Origin: Escherichia coli
GTDB lineage: Bacteria > Pseudomonadota > Gammaproteobacteria > Enterobacterales > Enterobacteriaceae
Assembly: GCF_003018235.1 (NCBI RefSeq)
Contig: NZ_CP027437.1
Length of the DNA stretch: 64,000 nucleotides
Strand: one strand, 5' to 3'
The position numbers and the translations under genes were made by a program. Of the stretch, positions 7 to 8,472 are shown piece by piece; within the stretch, counting starts at the first letter, position 1, and every line of letters starts with the position of its first letter. Under the pieces are notes generated by a model, which saw only the letters and a list, made by a program, of their open reading frames with translations, made no database searches and was not told the DNA's origin.

Positions 7-435
7 TTATTGGTGCTTCGATTTAAAAAACTCCCAATACTTTGGAGTATATCCTTTAAATGCTCTATGTTTCCCTTTTTCATAAGCTTTCAGGAAACAT
101 TCGTAAGCCTCATCGTTTTCACCTAATTCTAGACAAACACCCCCTAAGTTAATCAGTTCAGATGTGGAATATAGTGGAATTTCACACTTAAAAATTTCAA
201 CTGCCCAGTATTTTGCCTCATTATATTTTTTAAGGTCAAAATACACACCATAAATGCAACGAATCAACCATGCAGAAACTCCATCACCAAAAGAATATTT
301 CGGCTCAGGTAAACTATCCCACAAAGAAAGATAAAGTTTTAAAGCACCATAGGCATCTCCTTGATCTTCAAGAACGTTACCATCTTCGATTTGCTTTACT
401 ATGCTTTCTTCAAGCACTGGTCTGGTACTACTCAT
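7..435 (-). CDS. Putative immunity protein for the Rhs C-terminal toxin (142 aa)
   Basis: ORF begins 73 bp downstream of the rhs stop on the same strand; AT-rich like the toxin tip; helical, Tyr/Glu/Lys-rich sequence. Position and composition fit a cognate immunity gene; family not identified. Confidence 0.5.
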   Translation of the reverse strand: MSSTRPVLEESIVKQIEDGNVLEDQGDAYGALKLYLSLWDSLPEPKYSFGDGVSAWLIRCIYGVYFDLKKYNEAKYWAVEIFKCEIPLYSTSELINLGGVCLELGENDEAYECFLKAYEKGKHRAFKGYTPKYWEFFKSKHQ

Positions 436-508: not shown

Positions 509-3500
509 CTATTTTATGATTGGCGGTACAATTGGAGGTGTCACTGGTGGTAAGTATACTTGACCAAGTTTAGCCCCAGCAGAACGGTTAAGAGAATAAT
601 GATCCAAATAATAATTTTTTGAATCCAGCATCCAATCCCTGACAGGTTTAGACTTCGGCCCCAAAAATCTACCAGTATTATTCCACCATGTAACGGCATC
701 TGTCTTATGAGACATATCTGCTTCACTTAATGGATGCCAGACACCTTCAGAATCTTTAAACTCCATCCGGGAACCTGTCCCTCTAATTTTTCCATCATTT
801 CTCATCCGAGCAATAACCTCACGGCCTGTTCGGCTATTCTTCCCTGGGGTTCTTCCTAAGAAATCACAACGTTTTGACAGCCCTAATGGGTCAATCCACC
901 CCAGCGGATTAGGCGCATAAGCATACAGGTTCAGCCCGCCCGCCAGCCCTATCGGGTCCGTTACCATGAACCGCCCGACATCCGGATCATAGTACCTGTG
1001 CAGATTGTAATGCAGCCCCGTTTCCCTGTCGAGGTACTGTCCCTGGTAGCGCAGGTTCTGCTCCACCCCGCCGTGGTCCTTCTCCTGTATCGTGTTACCC
1101 CAGACCTGATACCCCGTCTCCCACACGATTTTCCCGTCGCTGTCCGTCATCTCTTCCGGCGCGCCGTTCACATCCGTGTGAAAATACAGTATCCGGTTCG
1201 GGCCCTCTTTACCCACCTTATCCACCCGCGCCAGCGGTTCATAACTCCCCGGGTCGCTGTAGATATACAGGCTGCTTATTCCCTCCGGCCTGCTCTCCTG
1301 CGCCAGCCGCATTCCGTCCCATAAAAATGTCGTCCGGTTGTACGGTTTACCGTCAGGGCTGATGTGCTGTTTTTCCGTCCGCCTCCCCAGCGCATCGTAC
1401 ACATACCGGTACGTTCCCCGCGCTGTCGTCACTTCCACCATCCGGTGTTCCGCATCATAACGGTAACTCTGCGTGCCGCTCCGGCCCTCCTTTTCCACCG
1501 CACGGCCAAATTCGTCGTAACGGTAGTGCACACCACGGTAAGACATCAGCCGGTTGAACGGCACCACGCTGTTTTCTGCCGTGGCCCTTTCCCCCGCGCG
1601 CCGCGCCAGCAGGTTTCCCGCCGCGTCGTACTCCCAGCTCGCCAGATACCCCTCATCCTCCGAGCGGCACGCCGTGATGCGCCCCGTGGGGTCGTAGAAG
1701 TAATCCGTTTCCCCCCGCCGGCTGTGCCGCGTCTTCAGCAGTTCATCCTCGCCGCTGTAGCTGTACTGCCGGTCCGTGAACGTCTCCGGTACCACCCCGC
1801 GCATCCCGCTGTATGTCTCCCTGCGCTTCAGCCGCCCGGCGGGGTCATAAAGCTGCCGCGTGCTCAGTCGCCCCTGACTTCTGAGCACTTCCCGGTGCAG
1901 GGCGTCACGTGTGAACTCGCTGATGACCTCCCGGTCCAGATTTATCTGCTGGAGATGGCCGCTGCCGTAGTACAGATGACGCTGCGTTCTGCCGTCCGGA
2001 AAGGAGGTGGCTGTCCGGTTGCTGAGTTCATCGTACTGATGGGTCAGGACGCCCTGCGCCGTCTCCTCAGTCAGCATCCGCCCCAGTCTGTCGTAACTGA
2101 AGCGGATAATCTCCGGTGCGTCCATTTCCCCGGCATCCGACCGTCGGCGGCGGATTTCCAGTAGCTGGTCTGCCGCATCATGGACGTATTCCGTACGGCT
2201 ATCGGCTGTCTCCTTTGCCGTGAGCCGGCCCGCCGCATCACGTGCCAGCCGGTGGCGGATTTCACCGCCCCGGTCCCCTGTGAACACCACTTCCGTGACC
2301 GCGTTCAGCACGTTGTAACGGTACGTCTGGCGGCAGCCGTCCGGATTTATCTGCTCCGCCAGACGGTCCAGCACATCATGGCGGAACCGGTAGTTTTCTC
2401 CGTTCTCGTTCGTGAGCGTGACCAGACGCCCGTAAGCATCGTACCCGAACGCCGTCCTGCGCCCCGTCGCGTCTGTCCGGCTGCGCACCCGGCCCTGCCC
2501 GTCCCGCTGCCAGCGCGTTATCCTCCCCATCGGGCTGGTGTACTTCACGAGCCTGCCCGCCGCGTCCGACTGGTAATTCACCGTGCGGCCGTCCGCCAGT
2601 ATCACCTCCGTCAGGTGGCCGCTGTCGTCATACCCGTAGCGCGTGCTGTGGCTCTGCGCGTCTGTCATCCGTATCAGCCGCGTGCGTTCGTCGTAGAACC
2701 AGGCCGTCTGCGAGCCGGAACAGTCCGTGTGCCGCATGAGCTGTCCGTCTTCGTTCCACTGAAGGTATTTATTCCCCCCGCGCGCATCCGTTATCTGCAC
2801 CACCTGACCGTGGCGGTCATACTGATACCGGGTGTTCTGCTGCAGCGGGTCGGTCACCGCAAGAAGATTGCCGCGTTCATCGTACTCACAGCACCAGCTG
2901 TTCCCCGCCGCGTCCACCTCCGTTTCCGGCTGGTGCCACACCGGGTGCCACTGTGTCTGTGCCACCCGCCCCAGCGGGTCGTGCGTCTCCGTGATATGCC
3001 CCTGCCGGTCATACACATAGCGCCATTTGCCGCCCTGCGCATCGGTCATTCCCAGTAACAGCCGTTCTTCGTCGCTCCAGCGGAACGTCGTCACCTGCCC
3101 GGCTTCGTCCTGGTACGCCGTCACCTGGTTCTGCGCGTCCCACTGATGATAACGCGTGCGCCCCAGCCCGTCCGTCACGCACAGCCTGCGTGCCGCGAGG
3201 CTCCACGCCAGCCGGTACTGTTCACCGCTGTCCGTGTGGTGCCCCGTCACCCGCCACGCTGCGTCATCCGGGCCTTCATACCAGCCCCACTGGTAATAAT
3301 ACCCTTCGCCGCCCGGCTGGCGGTGCAGGGTCATGCAGTGGTTTTCGTCGTAAGCAAACTCGCGCAGCAGGTGCCCCGTGCTGTCGTACACGCCGTTCAG
3401 GTCGCCGGCCTCGTCATAGCGGTAACGACGCAGCAGTAAAGGAGCCGTCTCAGGGAAATGCTGATAAATCTGTGTCACCCGCCGGGGATGCGCCGCCAGT

Positions 3501-5188
3501 TCATAATGCAGACGGATGCACGGACGCTGCTGTTCACCGCTGATTTGCGTGATGCGCCCCAGCTCGTCGTAGTACAGATTCAGACAGTTGCTGTTGCGGT
3601 CGCCCAGCATTTTCAGCCGCTGGTGCTGCGGGTGATGCGGGTCGGCTTCAAACAGAAAAAACTGCCCGTCATCGCTGCTGATAAGCCAGTGCCCCTGCTC
3701 ACCCCGCCGTACTGCCAGTCCTTCGCCGGGGCTGTAAAACCCGCTCCCCGGCAGCACAGCCTCCATATCCAGGCGTCGTCCCATGCCCGACACAAAGGTC
3801 ATACAGTTTTCGTCAGCAGTACCCGGCGTGCGCACGAGGCTGACTTCATACATCACGCTCCAGCCCTGCCCGAACATCCCTTCCGTGCGGTCGTCACGAC
3901 TGCTGTACACGCGCTGCCAGTCCAGCGGAAAGTGGCCCGGCAGACTGAAGTCAAAATCATCGTCATCGGCCAGATATTTGGCTCCGGTGGCGGCATTGAC
4001 CGGATGCGGAAGGGCACTGATGGCCTTCTGCGTCATCACCCCCATCCCGACACTGGCAGCAAAACAGGCGATTTTAGAAAGCATTTTGCCCGGGCGAAGA
4101 AACATCAGCGCCACGGTTGCCACCAGGGTTATCTGCGACCTGCCGCTTCTGATATCCCTGACCACCAGTAACGGACCGCCAATGCGGACATCCGGTGACA
4201 CAAACGCCCCGTTCCCCGGCTCATTCACCACCCTGGCCTCGCAGGTGCAGCGTGCCCCGCTGCGTGCCGCCGGCTGGCTGTTGATACGCACATCCCGCGC
4301 GCCTTCCGCGATATATTCCGCTGCGGGCGGTTCATCATCGCCTTTGAACAGATTACTGATGCTGCCAATAACCGCATTCACTCCCTGAAAGGCGGTTTCC
4401 AGCATACCGCCCGGACTCAGCAGGTTAAGGGCCGTTCCCAGGGGGTCATCCAGAAAGGCGGCTTTTTTTTGTGCGAGAAACTGCGTCAGTGAGGAGGGAT
4501 GTTTATGGCAGTCGATTTTATCGTCAGGGGTCGGGGTGGAGCCCGGGGCCGCACTGGCCACGGTGGGCTGCCATAGTTCCGACACAAAATGTGTCACGCC
4601 ATCCACCATTTCAGAACGCCCTTCTTCCGTACTGAGCTGGTCATGCAGCGCCCGGGACATCAGCACAGGCCCTGTCACCGGGTTAACCGCCAGGGCTATG
4701 GCCCCCGCCATTTCCAGATATTCCCCGGCCACATCCAGGAACGTTCTGGCGTCCTCCTGACGCTGCGCTTCTTCCTGTTCCGCCTTCGCCTGCGCCTCCT
4801 GCGCCTCAATGTCCTGCCGCGATGCCGCAGTCGCCGCGGCCCGCGCGGCAGGTTTGCTGTTGATCCATGTGTCGCCAGAGCCGGTGAGGATGTAACCTTC
4901 AATCTGAGGCGGGAAAAGCATATTTGCGAGGTCTGAACAGACTTCGCTGACCTTTTCTGTCACGCCGGTGTACACCATCGCCACACCCGCCACAAAACCG
5001 GTCAGCACGACGGCCGTGCACCCCATAGTGATCCCCGCTGACGTCGCCAGTAACGAGGTTGTGCCGACAATGAGGGCATCAATAACGACATTTGCGGCCA
5101 CCTCCAGCACCGCCCCCAGCACATCTGCCATAAACGACGTATGCAGCAGGGCATCACCCTGCCTTGCCGCCCAGAATGCCTCTTCCAT
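509..5188 (-). CDS. Rhs-family polymorphic toxin (1559 aa): prePAAR/PAAR N-terminus, YD-repeat shell, DPLGL boundary, variable 122-aa C-terminal tip
   Basis: ATG at 5188. N-terminus carries AARQGDALLH (prePAAR consensus AARxxDxxxH), hydrophobic stretches at residues ~23-75, and PAAR tetrapeptides at residues 113-116 and 306-309. Many YD repeats (YRYDEAGDL, YQYDRHGQ, YGYDDSGHL). Core ends PNPLGWIDPLGL; the last 122 aa (nt 512-877) are AT-rich. Confidence 0.9.
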   Translation of the reverse strand: MEEAFWAARQGDALLHTSFMADVLGAVLEVAANVVIDALIVGTTSLLATSAGITMGCTAVVLTGFVAGVAMVYTGVTEKVSEVCSDLANMLFPPQIEGYILTGSGDTWINSKPAARAAATAASRQDIEAQEAQAKAEQEEAQRQEDARTFLDVAGEYLEMAGAIALAVNPVTGPVLMSRALHDQLSTEEGRSEMVDGVTHFVSELWQPTVASAAPGSTPTPDDKIDCHKHPSSLTQFLAQKKAAFLDDPLGTALNLLSPGGMLETAFQGVNAVIGSISNLFKGDDEPPAAEYIAEGARDVRINSQPAARSGARCTCEARVVNEPGNGAFVSPDVRIGGPLLVVRDIRSGRSQITLVATVALMFLRPGKMLSKIACFAASVGMGVMTQKAISALPHPVNAATGAKYLADDDDFDFSLPGHFPLDWQRVYSSRDDRTEGMFGQGWSVMYEVSLVRTPGTADENCMTFVSGMGRRLDMEAVLPGSGFYSPGEGLAVRRGEQGHWLISSDDGQFFLFEADPHHPQHQRLKMLGDRNSNCLNLYYDELGRITQISGEQQRPCIRLHYELAAHPRRVTQIYQHFPETAPLLLRRYRYDEAGDLNGVYDSTGHLLREFAYDENHCMTLHRQPGGEGYYYQWGWYEGPDDAAWRVTGHHTDSGEQYRLAWSLAARRLCVTDGLGRTRYHQWDAQNQVTAYQDEAGQVTTFRWSDEERLLLGMTDAQGGKWRYVYDRQGHITETHDPLGRVAQTQWHPVWHQPETEVDAAGNSWCCEYDERGNLLAVTDPLQQNTRYQYDRHGQVVQITDARGGNKYLQWNEDGQLMRHTDCSGSQTAWFYDERTRLIRMTDAQSHSTRYGYDDSGHLTEVILADGRTVNYQSDAAGRLVKYTSPMGRITRWQRDGQGRVRSRTDATGRRTAFGYDAYGRLVTLTNENGENYRFRHDVLDRLAEQINPDGCRQTYRYNVLNAVTEVVFTGDRGGEIRHRLARDAAGRLTAKETADSRTEYVHDAADQLLEIRRRRSDAGEMDAPEIIRFSYDRLGRMLTEETAQGVLTHQYDELSNRTATSFPDGRTQRHLYYGSGHLQQINLDREVISEFTRDALHREVLRSQGRLSTRQLYDPAGRLKRRETYSGMRGVVPETFTDRQYSYSGEDELLKTRHSRRGETDYFYDPTGRITACRSEDEGYLASWEYDAAGNLLARRAGERATAENSVVPFNRLMSYRGVHYRYDEFGRAVEKEGRSGTQSYRYDAEHRMVEVTTARGTYRYVYDALGRRTEKQHISPDGKPYNRTTFLWDGMRLAQESRPEGISSLYIYSDPGSYEPLARVDKVGKEGPNRILYFHTDVNGAPEEMTDSDGKIVWETGYQVWGNTIQEKDHGGVEQNLRYQGQYLDRETGLHYNLHRYYDPDVGRFMVTDPIGLAGGLNLYAYAPNPLGWIDPLGLSKRCDFLGRTPGKNSRTGREVIARMRNDGKIRGTGSRMEFKDSEGVWHPLSEADMSHKTDAVTWWNNTGRFLGPKSKPVRDWMLDSKNYYLDHYSLNRSAGAKLGQVYLPPVTPPIVPPIIK

Positions 5189-5206
5189 GTCCCGTTCCCT
5201 GTGTGA

Positions 5207-5436
5207 TTAATTCGTCCCGGCTTCCTGCCGCATCCTGAAGCGCAGATTCTTTTTAATTTCAGCCCAGCGCGTCATATCTGCCGGGGTCAGCGGTGTGGTT
5301 CTGGCGTAGGTGAAGGCCATCATGACCCGCTCACCCGGCAATACAAATGCCACCTGACACTGGTACACCTGCTCGTTACCCCGGAGAAACTGGCTCTGTA
5401 TTTGCAAACCGCCTCATTGAGATAATATTCCGTCAT
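5207..5436 (-). pseudogene. Disrupted short ORFs immediately upstream of rhs; possible remnant of an effector-associated chaperone gene
   Basis: A 66-aa ORF (5207-5407, TTG start) ends 19 bp before the rhs start. An ATG at 5436 with an upstream AGGA opens a different frame that stops at 5320. No intact ORF of chaperone size. Assignment is positional inference only. Confidence 0.2.
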
Positions 5437-6190
5437 AATAGAAGTCGTCCTTTTTAATAAATGAATTATTTATTGACAGGTTCTGTTTTTTAATCATGAA
5501 TGTAATGTCTATCACCGCTTTACAGCACTCTTTATCTTTCAAGCGGTAATCACTAATAACATTAAGCAATTACCCATATTTACAATGACCGGAACTGATA
5601 TGCCGTTATGTATTTAACAATCCCAACATATTCACCATACCAATAAAATCACGAGTAACAAACACGCTACCGCCTCCATATAAAAAATGGACAGCTTATA
5701 AAATTGCATCTTGCATAGAAAGGGCTGAGATATCGAGTGTATTTTAATTATCAACTATAAATCTTGAATATTTTCATTAACAGAAACACATCTTATCCCA
5801 TTAGATATGTTAACAATCAATTATTCTTAACATATCACTAAAGTATATATTACTCTCTTTACTATCTGTTTTTATTGCGGTAGCGATATTAATAGCAAAA
5901 TTCGGAATTTATTTAGATGCTGGAATAAGAAAAAATGATGACGGCTTTCTTACCTTACCCTGAAGTTTCAGGAAAGTGTGTAAGGAAGGATGCAACCTAA
6001 CTGGAGATTTCTGAGGATCTAGTTGCTTAGAGCGACAATGAAGGTGAACGCATCCAGAGTAGTCCTATGAAAGGATACTATTGAAAATTGATGCTAAAAC
6101 AGTGATTAAATGAACAACACCATGGAACCCGTTGATTCAAAACGCCTAAACCAGCCCCCTGATACGAGGCTGGCTTAAACGCGCAGGCAA

Positions 6191-6397
6191 TCAGTAAAAA
6201 TCACCAGTTGCCTTTTCTGCCTGATCCATCCACACCGGTTTCTCGCTGGTTTTCGACCAGACGCGGTGCAGGTAGCTGTAAAAGCGGGCGCGGTCTTTCC
6301 AGAAAAGCATGAAAGGCAGCGCCAGAACGCCCGCTGCAACCGCATAAGTACGGCGTAAAAAGATAAGCCATGCAGGATATTCTCTGTAGAGTTCCAT
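6191..6397 (-). CDS. ybfA: YbfA, small DUF2517 protein (68 aa)
   Basis: 68-aa translation [16 protein letters not shown]... matches recalled K-12 YbfA; sits between rhs and kdpF as in K-12. Confidence 0.8.
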
Positions 6398-6709: not shown

Positions 6710-6799
6710 GTGAGTGCAGGCGTGATAGCCGGCGTGTTGCTGGTGTTTTTATTACTGGGTTATCTGGTTTATGCCCTGATCAATGCGGAGGCGTTCTGA
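6710..6799 (+). CDS. kdpF: KdpF, K+-ATPase small subunit (29 aa)
   Basis: GTG start; translation [29 protein letters not shown]; stop overlaps the kdpA ATG. Below the ORF-track size cut-off. Confidence 0.85.
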
Positions 6800-8472
6800 T
6801 GGCTGCGCAAGGGTTCTTACTGATCGCCACGTTTTTACTGGTGTTAATGGTGCTGGCACGTCCTTTAGGCAGCGGGCTGGCGCGGCTGATTAACGACATA
6901 CCTCTTCCCGGTACAGCGGGCGTTGAACGTATACTCTTTCGTTTACCTGGCGTCTCTGACAGTGAGATGAACTGGAAGCAGTATCTCTGTGCCATTCTCG
7001 GCCTGAACATGCTGGGGCTGGCGGTGCTGTTTTTTATGTTGCTCGGTCAGCACTATCTGCCGCTTAATCCACAGCAGTTGCCAGGGCTGTCGTGGGATCT
7101 GGCGCTGAATACCGCCGTCAGCTTTGTCACCAATACCAACTGGCAATCTTATAGCGGTGAAACCACGTTGAGCTATTTCAGCCAGATGGCGGGCTTAACG
7201 GTACAAAACTTTCTTTCTGCCGCCAGCGGGATTGCGGTGATTTTTGCCCTCATTCGTGCGTTTACCCGCCAGAGCATGAGCACACTCGGGAATGCCTGGG
7301 TCGATCTGTTACGTATCACGTTATGGGTGCTAGTCCCTGTGGCGTTGTTGATCGCACTGTTTTTTATTCAACAAGGTGCACTGCAAAACTTTCTGCCCTA
7401 TCAGGCGGTGAATACCGTTGAAGGAGCGAAACAGCTGTTACCCATGGGTCCGGTGGCTTCTCAGGAAGCGATAAAGATGCTCGGCACTAACGGCGGTGGC
7501 TTCTTTAATGCCAACTCGTCGCATCCGTTTGAAAACCCAACCGCACTGACCAACTTCGTGCAGATGCTGACGATCTTCTTGATCCCAACGGCACTGTGCT
7601 TTGCCTTTGGCGAAGTGGCGGGCGATCGCCGTCAGGGGCGCATGTTGCTGTGGGCGATGTCAGTGATTTTTGTCATCTGCGTAGGCGTGGTGATGTGGGC
7701 AGAAGTTCAGGGTAATCCTCATCTGCTGGCGCTGGGTGCGGACAGCAGCATCAATATGGAAGGTAAAGAGAGCCGTTTCGGCGTGCTGGTCAGTAGCCTG
7801 TTTGCGGTCGTGACTACGGCGGCTTCCTGTGGCGCGGTGATTGCGATGCATGATTCGTTTACCGCTCTCGGTGGCATGGTGCCGATGTGGCTGATGCAAA
7901 TTGGTGAAGTGGTATTCGGCGGTGTCGGTTCTGGTCTTTACGGCATGATGCTGTTTGTTCTGCTGGCGGTGTTTATTGCCGGGCTGATGATTGGTCGTAC
8001 ACCGGAATATCTGGGTAAAAAAATCGACGTACGTGAGATGAAACTGACCGCGCTGGCGATTCTGGTCACCCCGACGCTGGTGCTGATGGGCGCGGCGCTG
8101 GCAATGATGACCGACGCCGGACGTAGCGCCATGCTCAACCCTGGCCCGCATGGTTTTAGCGAAGTGCTGTACGCCGTGTCATCCGCCGCTAACAACAACG
8201 GCAGCGCCTTTGCCGGATTAAGCGCCAACTCTCCGTTCTGGAACTGTTTACTGGCGTTCTGCATGTTTGTCGGTCGCTTCGGGGTGATTATCCCGGTGAT
8301 GGCAATTGCCGGTTCGCTGGTGAGTAAAAAGAGCCAACCCGCCAGCTCCGGCACATTGCCAACGCACGGCCCGCTGTTTGTTGGCCTGTTAATCGGCACC
8401 GTGTTGCTGGTTGGCGCACTGACCTTTATCCCTGCCCTGGCGCTTGGTCCGGTGGCGGAATATCTCTCCTGA
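6799..8472 (+). CDS. kdpA: KdpA, K+-transporting ATPase potassium-binding subunit (557 aa)
   Basis: Translation from [12 protein letters not shown]... matches KdpA; ATG overlaps the kdpF stop (ATGA). The ORF-track N-terminal extension from 6655 is rejected. Confidence 0.95.

Follow-up and report, generated by a model that had tools for sequence, protein, structure and literature searches.

The 1002 bp that separate ybfA from rhs in a 64,000-nucleotide stretch of Escherichia coli DNA (hereafter, the window) carry the remains of a chaperone gene of type VI secretion (T6SS). The 38-aa and 66-aa open reading frames (ORFs) located there are shown, by alignment with intact alleles, to be two pieces of one eag (DcrB/DUF1795) chaperone gene that has undergone an internal deletion. 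In the direction of transcription (minus strand), the gap consists of the presumed ybfA terminator hairpin, a leader of ~600 bp, a vgrG-eag junction of ~100 bp, and the eag pseudogene. We consider it highly probable that the locus as a whole is explained by these four parts together with a single deletion event, its spread among E. coli lineages, service of the Rhs protein in trans by a paralogous locus, gene conversion of the 3' part of the pseudogene, and a leader that would supply the promoter and be bound by H-NS. The features of the locus are as follows.

From ~6600, plus strand: kdpFABCDE; the window covers the kdp-ybfA region of E. coli, in which ybfA is followed by an rhs island
6191..6397, minus strand: ybfA, conserved flank of the variable rhs site
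5189..6190: the whole ybfA-rhs gap, 1002 bp
6137..6182, minus strand: terminator-like hairpin, a 17-bp stem then UUUU, 9 nt after the ybfA stop
5537..6136, no strand assigned: AT-rich, locus-specific non-coding leader, ~34% GC
5485..5536, minus strand: vestige of the vgrG 3' end, ~11-16 codons, from the DNA match and tblastn
5437..5484, minus strand: homologous to the spacer between vgrG and eag, with the Shine-Dalgarno sequence of eag, AAGGA
5407..5436, minus strand: 5' stub of eag, the start codon and codons 2-10, MTEYYLNEAV
5406..5407, minus strand: deletion junction, with eag nucleotides 31-253 gone (alignments with intact alleles)
5207..5406, minus strand: 3' part of the eag pseudogene, from the second base of codon 85 through codon 150 to the stop
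5189..5206, minus strand: eag-rhs intergenic spacer, 18 nt, the same in intact loci (alignments)
509..5188, minus strand: rhs, 1559 aa, its start MEEAFWAARQGDALLH being the prePAAR motif (ORF list)
7..435, minus strand: immunity-like ORF, 142 aa, 36% GC, intact and directly downstream of rhs

A preliminary description of the window, made from its letters, had estimated the gap at ~1 kb and that of K-12 at only ~0.2 kb; both estimates agree with the measured lengths. In K-12, rhsC occupies the same insertion point, directly after ybfA, but the ybfA-rhsC gap is 242 bp long, there is no eag, and the upstream sequence is unrelated: similarity between the two gaps ends at the ybfA stop codon, and the leader is not found in K-12. 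The N-terminus of K-12 RhsC is presumably of a different type than that of the window Rhs. The GC content of ~30% given in the same description applies to the AT-rich parts of the gap (29% at 5437-5540 and 34% at 5541-6130) and not to the gap as a whole, which at 39% GC is a mixture of high- and low-GC parts, the eag remnant at 5189-5436 having 54% and the window 52%. The lowest-GC 590-bp stretch of the 64-kb window is situated within the leader, only 0.3% of 590-bp windows being as low. Further low-GC troughs (~34-35% GC) were observed at ~14.4-15.0 kb of the window, where the Res13 annotation places a hypothetical gene of 164 aa, located between kdpE and pgm, and at ~62.7 kb, near ybeF.

The longer of the two ORFs (66 aa, 5207..5407 on the minus strand, TTG start) corresponds to the C-terminal part of the chaperone. 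The Pfam domain DcrB (PF08786) matches its frame over profile positions 77-126 of 127 (E 1.8e-5, 25.3 bits), the fragment alone scoring just under the Pfam cut-off of 27.2 bits. A tblastn search with Eag proteins, of the kind suggested in the preliminary description, aligned window positions 5410..5210 with residues 84-150 of intact Eag at 95.5% identity (E 4e-41). The shorter ORF (38 aa, 5320..5436 on the minus strand, reading MTEYYLNEAVCKY...) begins at the true ATG of the gene, as positions 5436..5413 encode residues 1-8, MTEYYLNE, identical in tblastn to those of intact Eag, and the first ten codons read MTEYYLNEAV here versus MTEYYLNETV in intact alleles. The preliminary description had located both ORFs correctly, and its proposal of a decayed Eag/DUF1795 chaperone gene ahead of the prePAAR Rhs is borne out by the DcrB match, the level of identity, and the ATG piece being the true start.

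Intact 150-aa proteins, annotated as "DcrB-related protein", are encoded at the same position in E. coli G3X16-2, D7, CUWW06, and PapRG. These intact alleles score 67.2 bits against DcrB and weakly match Salmonella SciW (PDB 6XRR, 6XRB), while no NCBIfam model was found for the intact 150-aa Eag. In nucleotide alignments, the window sequence differs from them by a single net gap of 223 nt (nucleotides 31-253) in the 453-nt eag, which takes out residues 11-84 and with them over half of the DcrB domain. At 5407-5405, the final base of codon 10 meets the second and third bases of codon 85, and these three form the TTG "start". As 223 nt is not divisible by three, the frame is shifted, and the frame that opens at the true ATG closes at the stop at 5320, yielding the 38-aa ORF. 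With residues 11-84 gone and the frame shifted, a functional chaperone cannot be made from the remnant; and since no complete DcrB domain (~150 aa expected) is present in one frame, this copy is to be regarded as a pseudogene rather than a functional member of the family. The remnant is situated in the canonical place, 18 nt upstream of the prePAAR rhs, and tblastn revealed no second eag within the 64-kb window. The chaperone remnant as such is already known: public annotation records a pseudogene, the RefSeq/PGAP label in sister genomes being "DcrB-related protein; incomplete; missing N-terminus", and it fits the known biology of T6SS Rhs loci.

Such an arrangement has counterparts in EagR1 of Serratia marcescens and SciW of Salmonella Typhimurium, which likewise belong to PF08786 and are encoded directly upstream of a prePAAR-TMD-PAAR-Rhs gene. 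The lengths agree as well, with 150 aa for the intact alleles versus 148-153 aa for SciW. The differences are that the similarity to SciW is remote (E about 1e-3) and that the window gene is dead, given the deletion and the frame shift. A much closer relative is the paralogous vgrG-eag-rhs cluster at ansP/yncE (the K-12 rhsE position): its Eags show 2-5 differences per 150 residues from those of the ybfA locus (~97% identity), the rhs cores are ~99% identical, and ~100 bp upstream of eag are homologous between the two loci. The ansP/yncE cluster contains an intact vgrG and two upstream small genes, whereas in the ybfA copy the homology starts 31 bp within the 3' end of vgrG, and the place of these genes is taken by an AT-rich leader of unrelated sequence. 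The only close Eag relatives found outside E. coli are those of Escherichia sp. E1V33, where they adjoin vgrG.

The homology with these clusters defines a small vestige of vgrG in the gap. Positions 5414-5516 match vgrG-eag junctions from elsewhere in E. coli and from Escherichia sp. E1V33 at 77-80% DNA identity, the match spanning the 46-bp intergenic region and 31 bp of the annotated vgrG coding end. At the protein level, tblastn with the last 16 VgrG residues aligned the vestige AVIDITFMIK with the VgrG C-terminus LAIDVTFMNK*, the position of the stop codon being mutated. No other similarity to VgrG was detected in 5189-6190 (tblastn, word size 2), and no vgrG ORF was found by tblastn adjacent to eag-rhs or elsewhere in the 64-kb window. 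The expectation, raised in the preliminary description, of a vgrG in this gap thus has to be divided: none is there, as had been remarked, but this is not a recent loss, as loci with an intact eag at ybfA lack the gene too and a vestige of only ~50 bp is left. Similarly, the comparison across E. coli genomes that it had proposed did reveal versions of the ybfA locus with an intact eag, but no vgrG in these. In G3X16-2, CUWW06, and PapRG, the intact eag is preceded by this very leader (~780 bp), and vgrG is absent. As the same leader without vgrG precedes an intact eag, vgrG must have been lost long before the deletion in eag occurred, and the ybfA module is, judging from these alignments, an old "vgrG-less" derivative of a vgrG-eag-rhs cluster.

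Among 5426 complete E. coli genomes, 96 contain a single copy of a 54-mer that spans the deletion junction. The identical junction occurs in three leader backgrounds, those of window/Res13, 2A/Q5, and the mosaic GF3-3. Between some strains, divergence in the leader plus remnant is far below that of the neighbouring kdpA: substitutions amount to 0.4% of the leader versus 8% of kdpA 4-fold sites between the window and Res13, and to 3% versus 17% between the window and 2A. Because the same junction occurs in three backgrounds and the leader is far more alike than kdpA in such pairs, the simplest reading would be that the deletion arose once and was then carried into further E. coli lineages by homologous recombination. 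The kdpA gene itself (window 6799-8472) shows 4-fold divergence of 8% to Res13 and 15-17% to Q5 and 2A, and the same genomes are near-identical to the window in ybfA and the leader (5437-6397), which points to recombination breakpoints between ybfA and kdpA and an unusually deep kdpA polymorphism.

The two parts of the pseudogene are in different condition. Codons 1-8 are invariant (MTEYYLNE) in all six intact alleles examined, whereas among 11 truncated alleles the stub has three non-synonymous changes in these codons (T2P, E3K, N7Y) and a rewritten codon 9. Such changes would reflect relaxed constraint, in keeping with a start that is no longer used. The 3' part is open in 11/11 truncated alleles and contains few variants, largely present in intact paralogues as well (L126, R148); the window fragment ends in QEAGTN, as do the Eags of the ansP locus. 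The 3' half of the pseudogene may be "clean" because this tract has been homogenised with the paralogue by gene conversion; exchange with intact copies, and not selection on the fragment, would then explain its good condition.

The rhs gene downstream of the remnant is predicted to be an intact class I-type prePAAR Rhs effector gene. Residues 7-16 of its product, AARQGDALLH, fit the AARxxDxxxH definition of the prePAAR motif (PMC7773334), a hydrophobic stretch is seen by eye at residues 20-75, and the Pfam domains PAAR_motif (33.9 bits), DUF6531 (68.9), RHS_repeat (256.8), and RHS (54.3) all score above their cut-offs. The C-terminal tip following a DPxGL-type motif (window 512-900, minus strand) has no Pfam match. 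The 142-aa ORF has the position of annotated immunity genes in sister loci and only weak TPR matches, below the Pfam cut-offs. The tip and this ORF may represent a toxin/immunity pair that has yet to be characterised. In sister genomes sharing the truncated eag, the immunity genes found instead are those for MafI, Imm26, barstar-family, or other proteins.

How such an effector could be retained next to a broken chaperone gene is suggested by the paralogous cluster. PrePAAR effectors require their Eag for stability and delivery (PMC7773334; PMC4524185); Eag chaperones can be effector-specific (PMC7773334), and in Serratia EagR1 is able to act in trans (PMC4524185). A copy of the deleted 223 nt was detected, at whatever location, in 204 genomes, and either this segment or the stretch of leader next to it in 212; an intact eag copy is therefore missing from no more than 8 of the 96 junction carriers. 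The resulting figure of at least 88/96 carriers with an intact eag counts the 223-nt segment anywhere in the genome, the ansP/yncE cluster having been seen in strain 104. That strain combines a truncated eag at ybfA with intact vgrG (664 aa), eag (150 aa), and rhs (1458 aa) at ansP/yncE, and Res13 has an eag with an intact N-terminus ~0.8 Mb away. The deletion would be tolerated because nearly all carriers have the paralogous vgrG-eag-rhs cluster at ansP/yncE, whose Eag and VgrG would serve the still-intact ybfA-linked prePAAR Rhs in trans. Given the intact paralogue in at least 88/96 carriers, we favour this reading and suggest that the ybfA-linked Rhs is probably served by the chaperone and spike of the paralogous cluster. 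T6SS effector modules of the orphan or auxiliary kind, which depend on distant VgrG proteins and adaptors, similarly comprise an effector-immunity pair with neither a spike gene of their own nor a working chaperone, with the difference that in our case the reliance on a distant locus is deduced from sequence.

A competing explanation, less probable in our opinion but a serious one, is that the whole ybfA-linked module is a decaying relic, whose Rhs, devoid of vgrG and chaperone, no longer works as a T6SS effector; the long rhs ORF would then survive only through gene conversion from the paralogous rhs, recency of the loss, and selection on the immunity gene. Indeed, the locus has decayed by several independent routes, including an ISEc1 insertion in the leader, an eag-rhs fusion deletion, frameshifts and fragmentation of rhs, and the 223-nt eag deletion itself, and the ~99% identity of the ybfA and ansP rhs cores makes conversion plausible. 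The ISEc1 copy was observed in strain D7, inserted in the leader upstream of the intact eag (locus record 4719-5855), and the fusion, in strain 2018-05-2CC, joins eag codon ~108 to the interior of rhs (locus record 986-1523). Moreover, strains Q5 and CT282 have an intact rhs, and no intact eag of the same family was found anywhere in their genomes; these two strains agree equally well with a recent loss or a relic and with a module still in use. On the other hand, 9 of the 11 truncated-allele loci examined retain an open rhs of 4.6-4.7 kb, and their toxin/immunity ends are of at least five kinds. Being unique, the toxin tips cannot be maintained through conversion from a paralogue, and the occurrence of the deletion allele in three leader backgrounds means that it is not brand new.

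The leader was found in 198 of 5426 E. coli genomes, always as a single copy beside ybfA. It was not found in phages, and the sole "plasmid" match turned out to be a mislabelled 4.9-Mb chromosome. An exact scan with a conserved 22-mer of the leader gave no match in any other GTDB species representative, and a conserved 21-mer recovered nothing but the same ybfA locus from metagenomes. In our reading, the leader is island DNA under essentially no constraint, in which the promoter of the module must lie: between the window and G3X16-2, 9.7% of leader positions are substituted, close to the 9.9% of kdpA 4-fold sites. The leader would supply whatever promoter the module has, although the gap shows no excess of sigma-70-like sites (1 versus 3.2 expected from shuffled and composition-matched controls); the only match, at 5493..5465, overlaps the vgrG-eag intergenic homologue. 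Sites resembling the H-NS high-affinity motif TCGATAAATT are not in excess either (2 versus 1.9 expected), and these counts weigh neither for nor against a silenced promoter. From its composition, that of strongly AT-rich foreign DNA, and from general knowledge of xenogeneic silencing, it is reasonable to expect that the leader is H-NS-bound and putatively silenced, as the preliminary description had surmised.

It is highly unlikely that the leader conceals a decayed gene, vgrG or other, or encodes a regulatory RNA. Its retention in about 200 genomes and the presence of several blocks invariant among nine variants would agree with a hidden function, as would the folding of 5900-6195, which is better than that of shuffled sequences (z = -2.95). 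However, the low fold energy of this segment comes mainly from the ybfA terminator hairpin, and a candidate hairpin at 5949-5989 has two non-compensatory changes in the CUWW06 leader type. The leader has no Rfam family match, a search at E up to 1 yielding two chance eukaryotic matches only. In 5437-6190, tblastn with word size 2 detected no similarity to VgrG or Eag past the last 16 VgrG residues, and the best small ORF (19 codons, GGAGG-N7-GTG) has five residue differences between leader types, the changes being non-synonymous only. The substitution rate of the leader, moreover, equals the neutral 4-fold rate. The specific possibility that the leader is a decayed vgrG was rejected, as the same leader precedes an intact eag in G3X16-2, CUWW06, and PapRG.

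The hairpin next to ybfA, presumably the ybfA terminator, is common to genomes that lack the island, and 58 bp beside ybfA match O157:H7; the terminator scan missed it because its T-run is too short. Just downstream of this terminator, at ~6124/6125, a 27-bp perfect palindrome, TCTTCCATGATAATTAACATGGAAGAC, is inserted in all other leader types and is absent from the window/Res13 type.

We regard it as extremely unlikely that the 66-aa C-terminal fragment is made as a genuine small protein, translated from the TTG created at the junction and acting, for instance, as a modulator of a full-length Eag paralogue. The frame is open, with neither stops nor indels, in 11/11 truncated alleles examined, and the GAGG located 4 nt upstream of the TTG is kept, as GAGG-N4-TTG, in all three junction variants. 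Were this reading true, it would explain the open frame in all sampled carriers. But the frame comprises only 67 codons inside a tract exchanged with intact paralogues, and at three of its six variable amino-acid positions the variants are also observed in intact genes. Private changes of the truncated set include three non-synonymous and two synonymous ones, plus one change of the stop codon (TAA to TAG), counts that are too small, in a tract recombining with intact paralogues, to give a dN/dS comparison any power. Over half of the DcrB domain is also missing from the fragment, which PGAP classes as a pseudogene. That such a protein would pair with or titrate the full-length Eag of the ansP locus, and so tune the loading of two competing Rhs proteins, seems to us scarcely credible. 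Finally, a sequencing or assembly artefact is rejected, since 96 complete genomes, sequenced independently by many laboratories, share the junction.

The result matters mainly for annotation hygiene, in that neither the 38-aa nor the 66-aa ORF should be called a gene. Its modest evolutionary interest lies in a prePAAR Rhs and its immunity gene being kept, with toxin tips swapped, in about 96 sequenced E. coli genomes despite a broken cis chaperone and no adjacent vgrG, nearly all of these genomes encoding a near-identical chaperone and a spike 0.8 Mb away. The locus offers a convenient natural test of Eag and VgrG sharing between paralogous Rhs effectors, for which Q5 and CT282 are natural "no chaperone" controls.

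The N-terminal TMD region of Rhs (residues 1-100, window 4889-5188) exists as two alleles that are 59% identical, within flanks of ~99% identity. Both alleles are found at the ybfA and the ansP loci, beside near-identical Eags, and it is this co-occurrence that suggests cross-service between the two alleles by one type of chaperone. The two-allele region itself looks like either a recombining cassette or the result of diversifying selection on the chaperone-bound segment.
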